The position numbers and the translations under genes are program-made. The notes beneath the pieces are model-generated. The model was not told where the DNA came from. It did not search any database and saw only the letters and a program-made list of their open reading frames with translations. 64,000 bases of DNA from Candidatus Nomurabacteria bacterium. GTDB lineage: Bacteria; Patescibacteriota; Minisyncoccia; Phycocordibacterales; UBA9973. Position 1 is the first letter of the stretch, and the number at the start of each line of letters is the position of its first letter. Positions 34,963 to 42,274 of the stretch are shown here, piece after piece. The stretch lies in assembly GCA_021413905.1 (NCBI GenBank), contig JAIOPO010000005.1:2027-66026 (forward strand), in the 5' to 3' direction.

Positions 34963-35997
34963 TTATATCATATCTATCTTAAATTTCTTGTAATTTTTTT
35001 TGTATTGATTTTGATGCTTTTGACGAGCTGAGCCGACTAAAAATTGATTTACTTTTTTCGGGAATTTATCGCAAATTTGGCAAATGCGACCACAATATCC
35101 ATCTAGATTTTTTTCACAGTTTTCACAAACAATAAAAAGCAGATGACAAGAAAGATTTTTGCAATGTTTGTATTCGTCTGATTTTTCTTTTTCACAAATT
35201 TGACAAAATGAGATTATTTCATCCCCCACTTTCTCGCCCATTCTTTCATCAAAGACGAAATTCTTGCCTTTGAATTTATTCTGCAAGCCGAGCTCTTTGA
35301 CTCTATGCGCATAATCTATAATCCCACCCTTGATATGTTTTACATTTTTAAATCCATTATGTTTCATCCAAGCCGAAGCTTTTTCACATCTGATACCGCC
35401 GGTACAATAAAGCAAAACTTCTTCATCTTTTTTATCTTTAAACATATCACGCACTTTTTGGAGTTGTTCACGGAAAGTATCCACATTCATTATTTTTGCA
35501 TTTTCAAAATGCCCTATCGCCGCTTCGTAAACATTACGCATATCTATCACTGTCGTCCCGCGAGTAATCATATCATTCACATCTTCAGCCAATACGTATT
35601 CACCGGTGTCTGCCGGATTAAAAGTCGCATCATCGAGTCCGTCAGCCACTATTTTATTTCTCACTTTTATTATGAGTTTCAAGAAACTAATTTGTTTTTC
35701 TTCGACGGCAATTTTATAAGGCACGCCTTTAAACTCTGGTATGTTTTGTATAAATTTATCAAAAGCTTCGAAATTATGTTCCGGCACATTCATCTGCGCA
35801 TTGATGCCTTCATTCGCGACATAAATTCTACCAAGACATTTCAATTCTGAAAGTTTATCGAAAAGAGTATCCCGCATTTCTTTCGGATTTTCTATACGCG
35901 CATATTTATAAAAAGAAAGAGTCTTTCTTTTAAAATTCTCACGCGCCAAGTCCGCCAAAAGCTCCTCTTTATTTTTCGTATTCGCCTTCTTTATCAT
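34963..35997 (-). CDS. trhO: Rhodanese-domain protein of the UPF0176/YceA family (tRNA uridine-34 hydroxylase TrhO-like)
   Basis: The N-terminal domain FYKYARIENPKE...GRIYVANEGINAQ is followed by a rhodanese domain with the catalytic Cys (CTGGIRCEKAS) and a C-terminal Cys cluster (CQICEKE...C..C). Confidence 0.7.
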   Translation of the reverse strand: MIKKANTKNKEELLADLARENFKRKTLSFYKYARIENPKEMRDTLFDKLSELKCLGRIYVANEGINAQMNVPEHNFEAFDKFIQNIPEFKGVPYKIAVEEKQISFLKLIIKVRNKIVADGLDDATFNPADTGEYVLAEDVNDMITRGTTVIDMRNVYEAAIGHFENAKIMNVDTFREQLQKVRDMFKDKKDEEVLLYCTGGIRCEKASAWMKHNGFKNVKHIKGGIIDYAHRVKELGLQNKFKGKNFVFDERMGEKVGDEIISFCQICEKEKSDEYKHCKNLSCHLLFIVCENCEKNLDGYCGRICQICDKFPKKVNQFLVGSARQKHQNQYKKNYKKFKIDMI

Positions 35998-36053
35998 ATT
36001 TTCATATTAACGATAAAATGCCCATTTTGCAAGACTTATGCTACTATTAAATT

Positions 36054-36149
36054 ATGAAAAAACAAATGATTGTTTTAGTCATTCTAATAGCATTTTTCTC
36101 CATCTTGGGCTTCTACCTCGGCTGGCTAGACAATGGACCGAGGTTTTAA
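36054..36149 (+). CDS. Possible 31-aa single-TM micropeptide (not in ORF track)
   Basis: ATG at 36054 opens MKKQMIVLVILIAFFSILGFYLGWLDNGPRF*. It is the only plus-strand ORF in a minus-strand gene run. Speculative. Confidence 0.2.
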   Translation: MKKQMIVLVILIAFFSILGFYLGWLDNGPRF

Positions 36150-36171
36150 ATTTTTGTAAGAAGTATTTTTA

Positions 36172-36375
36172 CTAATTACTTATAACTTTTATGTCGTAAG
36201 TATCAATATCATCAAAAGTATAATTTTGTGGCAAATTATTTTTTATAAATTGTTGAGTATTTAGTTGAAATTCTCTTAAATCAGAACTTGCCGGTATTGA
36301 AAAAATTTCCTCAAAGTCCCCTTTTCTGATTTGTATCTGATTCAAAAGAATATTTACTGTAATTTCTTTTTTCAT
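36172..36375 (-). CDS. Hypothetical small protein
   Basis: A 67-aa ORF 6 bp downstream of the secreted-protein gene, likely cotranscribed with it. Confidence 0.3.
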   Translation of the reverse strand: MKKEITVNILLNQIQIRKGDFEEIFSIPASSDLREFQLNTQQFIKNNLPQNYTFDDIDTYDIKVISN

Positions 36376-36380
36376 ATAAT

Positions 36381-36932
36381 TTATAGATTTATTTCCATTT
36401 TTTGATTAACTAAGTTAGTGCAACTTTCTTGACTAATGTACTTAGTTCCATTGACTAAATCACCGAGCCAAGAACTATTACCAATTAAATCACTTTGTGG
36501 AGTGCAAGTAAGTAGTCTTTTATTTTCATAAGCGTCAAGTAATACAACTATCTTACCTGCACCTGAAACTAAAACAAAACATTGATTGAATTTTTGATTA
36601 TAATGATTCTGTTGATAAAAAGGATGTTCTTTGGATTGTCTTAAAATTCCATAGGGATCCATTTGCTCTGTAAAGTCAGTAAGTGTTTTTTCAGCTTGAT
36701 TTGCACATTTTGCCTGTAAATTTAAATCAACTGAAGTTGAACTTTTAACCTTCTCGTTATTATTAACTTTATTAGTAGGGACTGCAACAGAAACTTGAAC
36801 TACTGGTGGTTGAACAATTTTTTTATGAAACCAAGAAAATGGATTCCACCAAGAAGCCATAGCAATAGAAGGTAAAACAAAAACAGCCATTATTATAATT
36901 CCTGCAAATTTCGCATATTTTATATTTTTCAT
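36381..36932 (-). CDS. Hypothetical secreted protein with a signal peptide and 4 Cys
   Basis: The N-terminal signal/TM segment is AKFAGIIIMAVFVLPSIAMA. The mature part has conserved-looking Cys residues. No known family. Confidence 0.45.
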   Translation of the reverse strand: MKNIKYAKFAGIIIMAVFVLPSIAMASWWNPFSWFHKKIVQPPVVQVSVAVPTNKVNNNEKVKSSTSVDLNLQAKCANQAEKTLTDFTEQMDPYGILRQSKEHPFYQQNHYNQKFNQCFVLVSGAGKIVVLLDAYENKRLLTCTPQSDLIGNSSWLGDLVNGTKYISQESCTNLVNQKMEINL

Positions 36933-36985
36933 AATATTTGTATTTTACGCTTTCTAAACTTAGATTTCAAGCAAGACATCCTAAA

Positions 36986-37020
36986 TGTTATAAACTCTGC
37001 GATAGCAGAAAGTCTAACAA
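36986..37020. promoter_or_regulatory. 35-bp imperfect palindromic site (operator-like), copy 1, upstream of 36381-36932
   Basis: TGTTATAAACTCTGC-GATA-GCAGAAAGTCTAACAA has a TCTGC/GCAGA core. About 30 of its 35 positions match site 37551-37585. Confidence 0.5.
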
Positions 37021-37049
37021 ATACTACGACTATAAAAAACTTGAGTTAT

Positions 37050-37532
37050 TTACTTTTTTATATTATATCCTTTTGCAAGTTTGAAAGTTTTAAGACTTTC
37101 TTTAAGTCCAATATTTTCTATATAATCTAAAAACTTTTTCGGCAAAGGCGACGGACCCACCCAAACACTCTTTTGTATCATAATATAATTGAATTTCTTT
37201 AAATGCCAACGAAGCCATTCCCTCTCAGCTTTCTTTGGTTCAGGCACATCAAACATCACTATTAAATCTTTCGGTGCATCTTTTTTAAACTTAAAATCAA
37301 ATTGCTTTAGTGAATCAATTTTTTTATTTATATAGTCCTTGCCTTTCATTGTAATATGCAAACCTTCACAATCTTCCACAAATCCTTCTTTTAATAAATA
37401 CGACATTGTTCCTCGCAGTGAATTTGGTGAATGATTTTTAAATTTCGGCAAACCTAAAAAATCTACACGCATTCCTTTGTAGTTGAAAGATTTTTCACTC
37501 AGCTCTTTTAATAAATCAAATGCAATAGTCAT
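37050..37532 (-). CDS. Winged-helix domain protein with a C-terminal Cas2/VapD-like domain (PaaX-like regulator?)
   Basis: The N-terminal roughly 85 aa look like a wHTH (LRGTMSYLLKEGFVE...). The C-terminal block LIVMFDVPEPKKAEREWLRWHLKKFNYIMIQKSVWV follows the Cas2 pattern (beta-strand-DV ... R..L...L...G..Q.SV[FW]). Domain calls are by eye. Confidence 0.45.
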   Translation of the reverse strand: MTIAFDLLKELSEKSFNYKGMRVDFLGLPKFKNHSPNSLRGTMSYLLKEGFVEDCEGLHITMKGKDYINKKIDSLKQFDFKFKKDAPKDLIVMFDVPEPKKAEREWLRWHLKKFNYIMIQKSVWVGPSPLPKKFLDYIENIGLKESLKTFKLAKGYNIKK

Positions 37533-37550
37533 AAATAAAGTATATCAAAT

Positions 37551-37585
37551 TGTTAGAAACTCTGCTATCGCAGAAATTATAACAA
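37551..37585. promoter_or_regulatory. 35-bp imperfect palindromic site, copy 2, 19 bp upstream of the start codon of 37050-37532
   Basis: TGTTAGAAACTCTGC-TATC-GCAGAAATTATAACAA, near-identical to site 36986-37020. Confidence 0.5.
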
Positions 37586-37603
37586 TTATTGTTTTATAAC
37601 AAA

Positions 37604-40597
37604 CTATTTATAAATCTCTGCGCGTTTGCAATACTCGCATTTGGTATTTTTGCCATACGAATTATAATTACAAGGGCGAGCAATCCATTCTCCATTTTTT
37701 AGGAGATTGTCATAGTCGGCAATGTCTTTAATTAACAAATCTATTTTTTCTCTGTCTATGTGTGTAGAATAAAGAGCATTTTTGTCATCTTTTTTTGCTT
37801 CAAGGAAAAGAAGTTTGGAAGCGTATACATCTTTGCCTTTTTCTGCACCCGCGACGAGATACGAATACATCACAAGCTGACGCATCAATGTGGAAAGCCT
37901 GCCTTCTTCATCTATTTTTTCAATCACGCCTTTTGTTTTCACACTGCCGGTTTTAAAATCAGTCACCGTAATATCACCATTTGAATTTCTTTCTGTTAAG
38001 TCCAACTTTCCATACATCAAAAGCTCCGGGAATTTCGGATCTCTAAATTGCAAAGACCTTTCAGACATATAATCTTTCGCTAAAGTTTCGTAATAATTTT
38101 CCACCCAATGCATTACAGCATTTTCTGCATCTTTTGCCAGTTTTTTTAATTCTGTTTCATTACTGACTCCTTCTTTTTCCAATTCACTTTTTATTTTTTC
38201 TTTTATCTCAGCACTTTTCGGTAAAGTTTCGTTTTTCAAAATAAATTCTATCGCAGAGTGCACAGCAGAACCGAGACCAAGCGAAGTACTTTTGACTTCC
38301 GGCAATTTCAAAAAATTCCTAAAATACCATTTCCAAGGACATTCAAAAAAGTTATTCAATAATGACACAGATACTTTACTCTCATGATAATTCTCTCGCA
38401 CAAAAGTTTTTATATCTTCTAAAATATCCCCTTCCTCGCGTTGCATTACTTTCGTATATATTTGCGGTCCGTGTGTCAAAATTTCTTTTTGTGTTTCTTC
38501 ACGAGTTTTTTTATTAAAATGATTCTCGGGTAATTCTCGAATAATTTGCGCAAGCTCCATCGTCCCACCTGTGTAATTCTCATTCGCATATGAAATATTA
38601 CAAAATTCTTTCGCGCGAGTTATGGCTACATACAGCTCCCTTTTCACGGACTCAATATCTTTCTCTGCTATATGCATTTTCACTTTTTCAGGTAGAGTAA
38701 AACCATTTTTCTTTTCAGACATTATTACCTCTTCATTCATATGCGCTATCCAGACGGCTTTGTATTCCAAGCCTTTTGATTTGTGCAAAGTCATCACTTG
38801 CACGCCACTTTTCGTGCCAAAAGATGCCAAAGAAATATGACTGCCGTAACTTTCCAAACGTCTGAAATATTCTAAAAATTCTGCTAAACTTTTATTTTTA
38901 TCCCCGCCTCCTCGGCGGGCAGGCTTCTGCTCAAAAAGCATTGCAATATGTATGAAACTCCGCACGACTTCCACATTGCGTATCAATTCTTCGTGAGTTT
39001 TGGATTCATCAATTAAAAATTCATTGCCGACAGTGCTGACTATTACAGAAAGTTTTTCATTGGAAAGAGTATCTATCCAATTTTTCAATTTACCGCCCCA
39101 CTTTGAAATTGCGTTTTCTCCGGCGAAAAGTCCACCATCTTTGCCTTCGCCTATCAAATCTTCAATATTTAATTTATCCGGCTTTAATGATTTTAAAAAT
39201 TTATGCGCGGAAAAAGTTTCAATACCGCTGTATTTATCCAGTAATGATTCTGAAAGAGGAATGCTGTTATATGGATGAGCGATAATATTTAAAATTCGCA
39301 ACAAGCTTTGTGTTTCTGAAACATCAAATAAAGATAAATTTTTCCCAGCAGAAACAGGCACACCCATATTGTGCAATATTTCTATGGCATTTCTTACGTG
39401 ATAGTTTTTCGGCACGAGTATTGCGCAATCTTCGGGCTTTACCCCTTTATCAATTAAATTTTTGAAATATAAACCTGCGCCCAAAATCTCATCTCTCTGA
39501 TATGCATATTCACTCAAATATATTTTCTCACTACCATTTATATTACTTTTTAATTTTTCATTTGAAATAGAACTCTTCAATAAATCATCTGCCAAATCCA
39601 AAATATTTTGCGTAGAACGATAATTCTCAGTAAGTGTGATTTGTTTTGCTTTGCCAAATGTATGTGCAAATTCTTCAAAATATGACATCGATGCTCCAGA
39701 GAATCCGTAAATGAGTTGCCTGTCATCCCCCACTACAAAAATATTTGGCTTTTCTTCGTCTTTCCAGACAGCTTTCAAGAAATTATTTTGCACCCCACTG
39801 GAGTCTTGATGTTCATCTACCAACACATATTGATAATTTTCTTTTATATCTGAGCGTATGTCTTCATAATCTTCCACGAGTCTGACTGTGTATTCCAAAA
39901 TATCATCATAATCCATAAAGCCTTCCGTGACTTTTTTTTCTTCATACATTCGATAAAATTCCACGACTTCGCGCGTGCGTTCGAGAGATTCTATTTTGTT
40001 TTTTATTTCTTTTTTGAGTTGTCCTTTACTTTCTCCTCTTGAAGAAATACTATCGGGATCATTTTTTAAATTCTCAATATCCGCTTCGACATAAGACAAA
40101 AATTCCTCCGGTGTCAGCCTTTCTCTTTTTAATATTGAAATCAAATGTTTCAAATCGGAAAAATACATTACCGGATTTGCTCGCGGACGCAGATGCTCCC
40201 ATTCATTGTTTTGCAAAATATCGTCCACTAAAAATACCGCTTCATCATCAGAAAGCAATTTCGGCATTATTTTAAAACCAATATTTTCATAATTCTTCTC
40301 AATCAAATTTATGCCAAAACTATGAAATGTGGAAATGTGCACTTTGTCGGCATCATTGCCTATGTATTCCGCCAAGCGACTTTTCATCGCCTTCACGCCG
40401 GAATTTGTAAAAGTCAGACACAAAATACTGTCTGCTGTGGTATCCGTCTCCTTCAAAATATTCGCAATCCTCAAAGCCAAAATCTGCGTCTTGCCCGTGC
40501 CCGGACCAGCGACAACCATCACCGGACCATCAAGCGTATCCACTGCTTCTTTTTGTTCTTTATTTAATTTTTTATATTCTTCGTTAAATTTTTGCAT
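37604..40597 (-). CDS. UvrD/PcrA-like SF1 DNA helicase fused to a C-terminal PD-(D/E)XK nuclease with a Cas4/AddB-type 4-Cys cluster
   Basis: Walker A is VVAGPGTGKTQILALR, with UvrD motifs (TFHSFG, VLVDEHQDSS, VVGDDRQLIYGF). The C-terminus shows ECPWKWY ... D-x-D-x-K (YGKLDLTE...VTDFKTG) ... CNYNSYGKNTKCEYC. Confidence 0.8.
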   Translation of the reverse strand: MQKFNEEYKKLNKEQKEAVDTLDGPVMVVAGPGTGKTQILALRIANILKETDTTADSILCLTFTNSGVKAMKSRLAEYIGNDADKVHISTFHSFGINLIEKNYENIGFKIMPKLLSDDEAVFLVDDILQNNEWEHLRPRANPVMYFSDLKHLISILKRERLTPEEFLSYVEADIENLKNDPDSISSRGESKGQLKKEIKNKIESLERTREVVEFYRMYEEKKVTEGFMDYDDILEYTVRLVEDYEDIRSDIKENYQYVLVDEHQDSSGVQNNFLKAVWKDEEKPNIFVVGDDRQLIYGFSGASMSYFEEFAHTFGKAKQITLTENYRSTQNILDLADDLLKSSISNEKLKSNINGSEKIYLSEYAYQRDEILGAGLYFKNLIDKGVKPEDCAILVPKNYHVRNAIEILHNMGVPVSAGKNLSLFDVSETQSLLRILNIIAHPYNSIPLSESLLDKYSGIETFSAHKFLKSLKPDKLNIEDLIGEGKDGGLFAGENAISKWGGKLKNWIDTLSNEKLSVIVSTVGNEFLIDESKTHEELIRNVEVVRSFIHIAMLFEQKPARRGGGDKNKSLAEFLEYFRRLESYGSHISLASFGTKSGVQVMTLHKSKGLEYKAVWIAHMNEEVIMSEKKNGFTLPEKVKMHIAEKDIESVKRELYVAITRAKEFCNISYANENYTGGTMELAQIIRELPENHFNKKTREETQKEILTHGPQIYTKVMQREEGDILEDIKTFVRENYHESKVSVSLLNNFFECPWKWYFRNFLKLPEVKSTSLGLGSAVHSAIEFILKNETLPKSAEIKEKIKSELEKEGVSNETELKKLAKDAENAVMHWVENYYETLAKDYMSERSLQFRDPKFPELLMYGKLDLTERNSNGDITVTDFKTGSVKTKGVIEKIDEEGRLSTLMRQLVMYSYLVAGAEKGKDVYASKLLFLEAKKDDKNALYSTHIDREKIDLLIKDIADYDNLLKNGEWIARPCNYNSYGKNTKCEYCKRAEIYK
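38900..38926. repeat. GC-rich 27-nt hairpin-forming element, copy B, in-frame in the helicase-nuclease gene
   Basis: ATCCCCGCCTCCTCGGCGGGCAGGCTT encodes KPARRGGGD. CCCGCC/GGCGGG can pair. Similarity extends into the GCTTTTTGA flank, for about 45 nt in total. Confidence 0.65.
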
Positions 40598-41509: not shown

Positions 41510-42274
41510 TTATAGTTTACTATATTTTCCAATCTTTGTCCGCTTGATGGAATACGCAAGTGCTGGTATATTTATTTTCTCTCCCAAAGAATGTGCAATC
41601 CCCCGCACGTATGTACCAGAGCCACATTTTATTTTGAAACTTGCAGAAAAAAATTGCTCAGGCAATTTTTTTCTGCCCAACCCCCCTAATTCTCTTTTCC
41701 AAATTTTTAAAATTTCTTTTTGTCTGAAATCACCATTTACTTTCGCAATTCTTTTTTCAATGTTTTCTAAAAGTTTTTCTCTGCCGATTTTTTTAATTTT
41801 TATAAATTTTAAACTTTTTACAAACACTTCTCTTGTCGGCGTTTCCACCTCTTCGCCTTCACGTGCATAAGCAAACAACGGCTTGCCTTTCACTGTCTTG
41901 GAAGAATACATCGGATATTTTTGCGTGAATTTTCCGGTAAAATATTTTAAATTTTCTTTTATATTTTTTTCTAAATTTTCACTCTTGAGGTCTTGCCTAA
42001 AGATTTTTTGCAGTTTTCCTAAAATATCATAAGTATCCGTCGCGAAGCCAAAAAGAATTTCAAATTCATATTCTTTATCCAAATTCAAATACTTTTCTTT
42101 TTGTTTGCATTCTTTCCCAACAAGCACTATCAAAAGCCCAGAGGCCATCGGGTCCAATCTACCAGCATAAGTCATCGGCATATCTTTGTATTCCTTATTC
42201 TTCGCACGAAATTGCTCCAACGCTTCCAGCGGAGTTTGTCCTTCTTTTTTGTTAAGTAAAATTACATTTTTCAT
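41510..42274 (-). CDS. truB: TruB-family tRNA pseudouridine synthase
   Basis: YAGRLDPMASGLLIVLVG resembles the TruB catalytic-Asp motif (GTLDPxAxGxL). Confidence 0.6.
   Translation of the reverse strand: MKNVILLNKKEGQTPLEALEQFRAKNKEYKDMPMTYAGRLDPMASGLLIVLVGKECKQKEKYLNLDKEYEFEILFGFATDTYDILGKLQKIFRQDLKSENLEKNIKENLKYFTGKFTQKYPMYSSKTVKGKPLFAYAREGEEVETPTREVFVKSLKFIKIKKIGREKLLENIEKRIAKVNGDFRQKEILKIWKRELGGLGRKKLPEQFFSASFKIKCGSGTYVRGIAHSLGEKINIPALAYSIKRTKIGKYSKL

Follow-up and report, generated by a model that had tools for sequence, protein, structure and literature searches.

A stretch of 64,000 nucleotides (nt) from contig JAIOPO010000005.1 of a Candidatus Nomurabacteria bacterium (positions 2,027 to 66,026; called the window below) contains a short gene that is bracketed by two near-identical palindromes. 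The gene encodes a protein of 160 amino acids (aa), here termed mini-PaaX from its domain matches, and is read from the minus strand (37050..37532, with its ATG at 37532 and its stop codon at 37050), as are all of the genes around the palindromes. A repeat search places palindrome A (site A) at 37548-37588, upstream of the gene, and palindrome B (site B) at 36983-37023, downstream of it. The same layout is found around homologues of the gene in other species, and a comparison of these loci suggests that the protein would recognize its own flanking palindromes.

Both palindromes had been described in a reading made from the DNA letters alone (below, the sequence-only reading), and both are present where it had placed them. 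As a direct pair, sites A and B are 83% identical over 41 nt, and as an inverted pair they are 85% complementary over 39 nt; the 35-mers said to agree at about 30 of 35 positions agree at 29 of 35 when counted here. Site A is palindromic on its own, with 18-nt arms that are 83% complementary around a 4-nt centre (18+4+18). On the gene strand it reads TTGTTATAATTTCTGC-GATA-GCAGAGTTTCTAACAA, that is, an inner core TCTGC-N4-GCAGA, an A/T-rich spacer that is not complementary, and outer arms TGTTA/TAACA. Site B, which reads TTGTTAGACTTTCTGC-TATC-GCAGAGTTTATAACAT on the same strand, has arms of the same class. The ATG of the 160-aa gene lies 18 nt past the end of site A and about 35 nt past its centre, and site B starts about 29 nt past the stop codon. 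With up to two mismatches allowed, the 64 kb contain exactly two occurrences of the 20-nt core AAACTCTGC-N4-GCAGAAA; 0.10 occurrences are expected in shuffled sequence, and 1 of 100 shuffles gives two matches. In addition, a 36-nt scan of the window at a threshold of at least 22 of 36 identities returned no copy besides A and B. Since the core is thus limited to these two sites, the initial observation is confirmed. The strongest evidence against chance, though, is the recurrence of the site-gene-site arrangement in other species.

This recurrence was followed in 80 homologous loci from species-representative genomes (46-83% protein identity), 79 of which could be examined on both sides of the gene. 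Site statistics given below refer to 152 sites, upstream geometry to 74 loci, and the check for homologues of adjacent open reading frames (ORFs) to 160 related loci. Essentially all of the 79 loci have one palindrome before the start codon and one after the stop codon, so the flanking palindromes are indeed kept by homologues. In most of the 74 loci, 15-35 nt separate the upstream palindrome from the ATG, and the downstream palindrome starts about 0-60 nt past the stop codon, whatever the orientation of the next gene. The expectation that homologues would also keep the same neighbours did not hold. Neighbours depend on the clade, and this includes the helicase gene of the window, whose synteny does not extend beyond the clade of the window. 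The others are housekeeping genes, which we take, several of them by eye, to encode IleRS, RecJ, RecR, DnaB, GDH and PheS/T. No conserved functional partner was found among the neighbours of the 80 loci, nor was a VapX-type partner; paa catabolic genes are likewise lacking among the neighbours in the window and in the 80 loci. The window itself has a single copy of the gene, no second paralogue having been found in the 64 kb.

A few loci depart from the simple layout by having more sites. One (L005) has two tandem downstream sites. In two others a third site is present (L012:4050-4085 and L075:3818-3853) that is identical to a flanking site at 35 of 36 and 32 of 36 positions, respectively, the flanking site being the upstream one in L012. 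An extra gene, encoding a secreted-looking protein of 227 aa or a protein of 277 aa, lies between this third site and the upstream site of the regulator, as if a gene had been inserted beside the site with the site duplicated.

The 160-aa protein matches the Pfam family PaaX_M (PF20803, 'central Cas2-like domain') over residues 91-152, at E=5.4e-13 and with a score of 49 bits (cut-off 24). A model calculated with AlphaFold2 from a 100-sequence alignment, with a predicted local distance difference test score (pLDDT) of 89, has a winged helix, a linker and a beta-alpha-beta-beta-alpha-beta unit; an earlier model from a shallow alignment had a pLDDT of 70 and gave weak Foldseek matches, and the 100-sequence alignment mended its quality. 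The winged helix comprises residues ~1-75, including a predicted recognition helix at residues ~36-49, and the Cas2-like ferredoxin fold (PaaX_M) comprises residues ~88-152. A winged helix joined to a Cas2- or PaaX-like fold was what the sequence-only reading had proposed, and the model and the Pfam match bear out the two halves of that proposal. Within the PaaX_M part, D95, R104, R108, S122, W124 and G126 are invariant. D95, which is unchanged across 100 diverse homologues, aligns to position 8 of the cas2 model profile within a Y-D-I/V motif, the position of the catalytic Asp of Cas2. The PaaX_C effector domain gave no match at E<=1, and the protein terminates at residue 160. When the family profile was compared with the PDB, nothing significant emerged, the only matches being weak ones to winged helices.

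The family is large, with at least 2,593 clusters at 50% identity (E<=1e-3). A length of 150-200 aa is shared by nearly all of the best 150 relatives, and all named relatives belong to the candidate phyla radiation (CPR)/Patescibacteria, of the Paceibacteria type. Its labels are 'Cas2', 'PaaX' or 'hypothetical'. An identical protein (P0001) has been deposited as 'CRISPR-associated endonuclease Cas2 [Candidatus Nomurabacteria bacterium]', several relatives are named in the same way, and JGI labels relatives 'PaaX'. The name Cas2 arises because the NCBIfam cas2 model TIGR01573 scores 25.4 against a cut-off of 24.5, a margin of 0.9 bit, over a stretch of 37 residues. A CRISPR Cas2 identity was considered and rejected. 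Cas2 proper is a stand-alone protein of about 90-100 aa whose gene adjoins cas1 and a CRISPR array. Here, the resemblance to Cas2 is confined to the C-terminal half of a 160-aa fusion protein, its Pfam Cas2 score (22.1) does not reach the cut-off of 23.8, and the 64-kb window contains no CRISPR array or CRISPR-like family of spaced repeats. The Cas2 naming is thus a systematic misannotation across a large CPR family. The remark in the sequence-only reading that cas1 is missing agrees with this context, in which there is no array; among the neighbours of the 80 loci no cas1 was recognized from ORF sizes and sequences, no search with a Cas1 profile having been made.

The anatomy of the palindrome is equally well conserved, with one variable element. 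Over the 152 sites, with positions numbered outward from the centre, the complementarity of the arms amounts to 0.94-1.0 (positions 1-2) and 0.63-0.84 (positions 3-5); it is at chance level (0.35-0.50) at positions 6-8, in the A/T-rich spacer, and reaches 0.89-0.99 at positions 11-15, in the outer arms. Both halves have a spacer that is rich in T on one and the same strand, and the commonest 'mismatch' is T:T. An inner GC-N4-GC core, extended to (T)CTGC/GCAG(A), is near-constant across the family. The outer arms, in contrast to the core, fall into classes that include TGTTA, TACTTATA, TGACACA, GGTAGCAA, TTAACAA, TACTCAA and TTACC, and their identity is 0.88 within the two sites of one gene versus 0.38 between loci (<60% protein identity). 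Nine genomes contain 2-3 paralogues, each having its own arms or core; because paralogues of one genome differ in this way, the arms follow the paralogue and not the host lineage. Furthermore, the class of the arms goes with the predicted recognition helix (residues ~36-48): TGTTA is found with SLRGTMSYL, TGACACA with RSLRTTIDRL and GGTAGCAA with GSLKSGISQL. Mean pairwise identity of the proteins is 43% in the N-terminal half and 74% in the C-terminal half, so that a variable and a constant half of the protein would seem to mirror the variable arms and the constant core of the site. This covariation with both paralogue and helix lends weight to the earlier suggestion that the palindromes are the protein's own sites. 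One locus (L071:5001-5600) has upstream and downstream palindromes of different arm classes (CTTACCGAAAAAACGCCATGGCG... versus TATACCCATTTTACGCTATCGCG...) and is the only clear exception to the sharing of arms within one gene's two sites.

Between site A and the ATG lies the extended -10 element TGATATACT (37539..37547, minus strand), which ends 6 nt before the ATG; there is no Shine-Dalgarno motif. Of 74 homologues, 84% have a match to TATAAT at 5 or more of 6 positions in the 22 nt before the ATG, versus 47% of other ORFs. The -10 box most often ends 6-7 nt before the ATG, with the palindrome immediately upstream, and none of the 74 homologues has a Shine-Dalgarno-like motif. Because the -10 box is so near the ATG, the mRNA of the 160-aa gene is probably leaderless or near-leaderless, and site A would then lie over the -35 region. 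The upstream site does, therefore, sit on the gene's own promoter, which is the geometry of autoregulation that had been suggested from the letters, and promoter occlusion is the most likely mechanism by which the protein would repress its own synthesis. With respect to the loci as a whole, a Shine-Dalgarno-like motif precedes just 6% of the ORFs of at least 100 aa in the 80 loci, and TATAAT (at least 5 of 6) precedes 47%. Leaderless or Shine-Dalgarno-independent initiation may be widespread in Paceibacteria-type genomes, although an AT-rich background would inflate the count of -10 boxes.

Site B is followed in the window by two ORFs on the minus strand, the first of 183 aa with a hydrophobic N-terminal segment (36381..36932, ATG at 36932, 53 nt from the end of site B) and the second of 67 aa (36172..36375). 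Neither has a homologue in the 160 related loci, and searches of Pfam, NCBIfam and PADLOC gave no match to either. The gene that directly follows the site in close relatives encodes TrhO or PheS. For these reasons the two ORFs look like an insertion specific to this lineage. All clades keep the downstream site, even though 47 of 79 downstream neighbours (59%) are convergent; this constancy, together with the orphan status of the two ORFs, indicates that the site belongs to the regulator gene and not to the neighbour. A standard terminator was also considered for site B and rejected: an intrinsic terminator scan of 35900-37800 found none, and a T-run (at least 6 T in 10 nt) follows 23 of 74 downstream sites (31%). 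Our best guess, offered with modest confidence, is that the downstream site serves as a second operator, through looping or cooperativity, or as a roadblock. On the other side of the regulator lies a gene for a UvrD-type helicase with a C-terminal PD-(D/E)XK nuclease domain (997 aa; 40597..37604, minus strand; Pfam). It had been called a Cas4-type neighbour, a description that gives way to that of a UvrD/PD-(D/E)XK helicase-nuclease whose synteny is confined to one clade.

Palindromes of this kind are not found only beside the gene. A metagenome scan restricted to the arm class of the window (TGTTA-N6-CTGCKATMGCAG-N6-TAACA) yielded 90 site instances in 81 loci: 34 lie beside a homologue of the gene, 18 are too near a contig end to judge, and 38 are without a homologue nearby. 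Many of the intergenic solo sites occupy tiny gaps, 2-4 nt past a stop codon and 0-40 nt before the next start; the genes downstream of them, judged by eye, are presumably rbfA and genes for a NUDIX protein, a Zn-ribbon protein, an M16 peptidase and UDG. Some 20 solo sites are located inside long ORFs, to which they add 12 extra codons, always in one reading frame, with the resulting peptide xVTNSAIAENVTx (..SAMAE.. for the CATG-core class). Their hosts span 7 unrelated protein families, namely a reverse transcriptase, a class-V aminotransferase (cysteine-desulfurase-like), TsaD, ComEC and a lamin-tail-domain protein, as well as two that we take by eye to be Pgk and GatB. The reverse transcriptase has two different insertion points in the same loop, and the aminotransferase has two arm classes at the same loop. 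Where an orthologue lacks the element, there is a clean gap of ~12 residues; the in-frame copies are thus insertions, polymorphic among related genomes. The solo sites of GatB and the reverse transcriptase are found at the same position in orthologues that are just 68-77% identical. The density of sites is about 10 extra in 738 kb around homologues, 0 in the window and ~0 in shuffled sequence. The sequence-only reading had held that scattered copies without a tie to the gene would speak for a generic repeat, and such solo copies do exist in related genomes, but the window has none beyond A and B. In sum, the palindromes behave as a low-copy family of dispersed 36-bp elements, which from its distribution may be likened to the repetitive extragenic palindromic (REP) sequences and to the Rickettsia palindromic elements (RPE).

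The most frequent host of solo sites is the reverse transcriptase, a protein of ~345 aa (RVT_1, with a generic reverse transcriptase model as its best PADLOC match), found on contigs L084, L088, L098, L099, L113, L134, L135, L148, L152 and L161. The insertion lies between reverse transcriptase motifs 3 and 4, and after it several contigs have AATCCAATATACGCC-ATG, reminiscent of the arrangement of -10 box and ATG upstream of the regulator gene. In TsaD, three genomes have three different palindromic insertions in one surface loop that other orthologues lack: a 36-mer of the TTAACA class (in the orthologue at L016:3481-4746), a hairpin CCGCC-GAAAA-GGCGG (in that at L024:884-2140), and an inverted repeat AAGGTCGAACCTT...AAGGTTCGACCTT (in that at L026:3202-4398). 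These genomes may commonly contain palindromes inserted in frame. Within the window, the coding region of truB (41510..42274, minus strand) contains a perfect 15+4+15 palindrome at 41643-41676, GCAGAAAAAAATTGC-TCAG-GCAATTTTTTTCTGC, whose arms terminate in GCAGA/TCTGC, the pentamer common to the core of sites A and B; it may be another such insertion.

Known PaaX provides a framework for these observations. In E. coli the PaaX operator is TGATTC-N27-GAATCA, and at its own promoter PaaX acts as a repressor through steric hindrance (PMC9493321). As the PaaX half-sites are N27 apart, the N24 spacing seen here is what a PaaX-type dimer would need, and the layout, the covariation of the arms and this PaaX-like spacing together constitute strong indirect evidence for the binding of a dimer at both sites. 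In the model that we propose, a truncated PaaX-type protein, consisting of a winged helix and PaaX_M, would dimerize through its Cas2-like domain, as PaaX does, and the dimer would read a 36-bp bipartite palindrome. The winged helices would contact the outer arms (TGTTA-N24-TAACA), which would place the near-invariant Cas2-like dimer over the near-invariant centre TCTGC-N4-GCAGA. Binding at site A, over the -35 of an extended -10 leaderless promoter, would repress the protein's own synthesis. Site B would be a second operator, used for cooperative binding or for looping across ~565 bp; alternatively, it would be a roadblock that insulates the small gene from neighbouring transcription. Binding of a dimer at both flanking sites, with autoregulation, is well supported by the comparison of loci. 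We lean, with rather better than even confidence, toward the full proposal that a mini-PaaX dimer binds and autorepresses in this way and is the cognate protein of a REP-like family, not a regulator of the 183-aa and 67-aa ORFs.

Several points weigh against this model. The support for binding and repression is comparative throughout, and the upstream palindrome overlaps the start codon in ~7 loci and differs in position between clades, so that a single geometry of promoter occlusion would not be universal. Both sites can fold as stable hairpins and may therefore have a role as single strands. Moreover, a plain autoregulator leaves unexplained the in-frame sites whose presence in housekeeping genes is polymorphic, and a role in dimerization leaves unexplained why PaaX_M is far more conserved than the DNA-reading domain and why D95 is invariant. 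Because autoregulation explains neither the in-frame solo sites nor the Cas2-like conservation, a role like that of the REP-associated tyrosine transposases (RAYTs) is a serious minority hypothesis, one that we consider improbable. In this hypothesis, the palindromes would be miniature mobile elements, mobilized or maintained by the protein of the gene that they flank, and autoregulation would be a by-product; the winged helix would supply class specificity, and the Cas2-fold domain, with its invariant Asp, would be a nuclease or strand-transfer module. A gene flanked by two copies, with one arm class per paralogue, is what would be expected of a RAYT with its own REP class. The hypothesis also draws support from the solo copies squeezed in just past stop codons, from the same-frame insertions in 7 families (with two points in the reverse transcriptase and two arm classes in one aminotransferase loop), from the clean gap in orthologues, from the third copy in L012 with a gene inserted between it and the upstream site, and from the alignment of D95 with the Cas2 catalytic position. 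However, the copy number is very low, both in the window and in the 738 kb. Several solo sites (GatB, reverse transcriptase) look old and maintained, not recently mobile, because they hold their position in such divergent orthologues. Neither a target-site duplication nor exact boundaries of the insert were definable, host genes with and without the insert being too divergent, and we know of no PaaX- or Cas2-fold protein that transposes DNA. In PaaX the counterpart domain is a dimerization module (PMC9493321), and catalysis by PaaX_M has no precedent. In its fullest form, to which we give the same low credence, the hypothesis would make mini-PaaX and its palindromes an unrecognized CPR replicator, in which a winged-helix/Cas2-fold protein recognizes, cuts and spreads its own palindromes, with in-frame insertion into essential genes; the catalytic site would be the invariant Asp, which the Cas2-like dimer would place over the conserved centre of the palindrome.

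The remaining explanations are less likely than a RAYT-like role. One is that the protein is a structural or roadblock factor acting at a few sites in the chromosome, like Tus/Ter, RTP/Ter or ParB/parS, with the gene-adjacent sites kept for autoregulation. The tus gene is autoregulated at the adjoining TerB, and Ter and parS sites are in some cases intragenic; likewise, the sites here are few and dispersed in each genome, some within coding regions, the gene adjoins its own sites, and the sites have strand polarity (T-rich spacers on one strand, T:T mismatches). Such a factor would not, however, be expected to have 2-3 orthogonal paralogues per genome, or sites that are present or absent among related genomes, and we regard this explanation as quite unlikely. 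Slightly more doubtful still is the idea that the palindromes act independently of the protein, as hairpins of RNA or single-stranded DNA that terminate transcription or stabilize mRNA ends. Sites A and B do fold well as RNA (-14.5 and -11.8 kcal/mol; z-scores -5.1 and -3.1), outer and inner stems covary, and the downstream site is just past the stop codon. Nonetheless, arm positions 6-8 are complementary at chance level only, the terminator scan was negative and a T-run follows a minority of downstream sites, and no RNA family lies at the palindromes (the sole Rfam match at E<=1 is a chance snoRNA elsewhere). As it precedes the conserved -10 box, the upstream site would be missing from the mRNA, and a hairpin leaves unexplained how arms change with the helix of the paralogue within one genome. 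Least probable of all, in our view, is the interpretation first put forward for this locus, that the repressor also controls the 183-aa/67-aa unit and forms a small module for regulation or defence, which the Cas2/VapD-like domain might link to CRISPR or to toxins. The domain is indeed Cas2-like, and site B is just upstream of a promoter-like TTGAAA-17-TAAAAT that precedes the 183-aa ORF. Yet the downstream site is kept regardless of the neighbour, and both ORFs are orphans. As to defence, PADLOC gave weak Cas2 matches for the 160-aa protein and nothing more, the neighbours are housekeeping genes, the window has no array, and neither the site pattern nor the protein was found in viral contigs. 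The same source had offered a second view of the two sites, as terminal inverted repeats of a cassette; this retains some force, each site being a complete palindrome that is also found alone elsewhere in related genomes.

Once the family is relabelled as a DNA-binding protein bracketed by its own sites, false CRISPR calls disappear from CPR genomes. Its constant scaffold, with dozens of naturally paired helices and arms, would amount to a specificity code for a winged-helix family, and could serve as a resource of orthogonal 160-aa repressors with defined 36-bp operators. Furthermore, the solo copies show that the tiny genomes of CPR bacteria have dispersed palindromes linked to a protein of their own; to our knowledge, no such link between repeat and protein exists for the in-frame elements of Rickettsia, and for REPs it exists only with an unrelated enzyme. 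Should the protein prove to mobilize the elements, a Cas2-fold domain would have a role in DNA transactions outside CRISPR.

Among known systems, PaaX of E. coli W (PDB 8a39; Pfam PaaX/PaaX_M/PaaX_C) is alike in having an N-terminal winged helix followed by a Cas2-like PaaX_M, and inverted half-sites that lie more than two helical turns apart (N27, versus TGTTA-N24-TAACA here). It differs in length (~305 aa versus 160) and in its C-terminal helical effector domain (PaaX_C), which senses phenylacetyl-CoA and is missing here. No paa genes are nearby in the present case, the operator has an extra conserved central core, the gene is bracketed by two sites, and a CPR-confined family has several orthogonal paralogues per genome. 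The endoribonuclease fold of Cas2/VapD is found here in a winged-helix fusion, for which no cas1 was recognized among the neighbours from ORF sizes and sequences, with no array in the window and no VapX-type partner. A literature search found no paper that joins PaaX with Cas2-like proteins or with Patescibacteria, and none on in-frame palindromes in CPR.

The arrangement of gene and repeats finds its closest parallels elsewhere. RAYT genes are flanked by two REP copies, and each RAYT is paired with its own REP class (PMC3116915, PMC3337134). As in the REP/REPIN-RAYT system, a single-copy, vertically inherited gene lies here between two imperfect palindromes of ~36 bp (PMC3116915, PMC5581495), with dispersed solo copies and a repeat class for each paralogue. 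Unlike RAYTs, the protein is unrelated to the HUH/Y1 (IS200/IS605-like) transposases, its only matches being PaaX_M/Cas2-like, and there are a handful of copies, many of them intragenic, instead of hundreds (tens to hundreds, extragenic, for REP). RPEs also are palindromic repeats that lie in frame in unrelated housekeeping genes, where they are tolerated as extra surface peptides (PMC1779305, PMC10969869). The element described here differs from them in its length of 36 bp, in its use of always one frame, and in the dedicated gene for a predicted binding protein between two copies. RPEs are ~100-150 bp long, and we know of no cognate protein for them. The family-wide architecture and its natural specificity code appear to be undescribed, and the whole appears to combine a PaaX-type repressor with REP/RPE-like palindromes.

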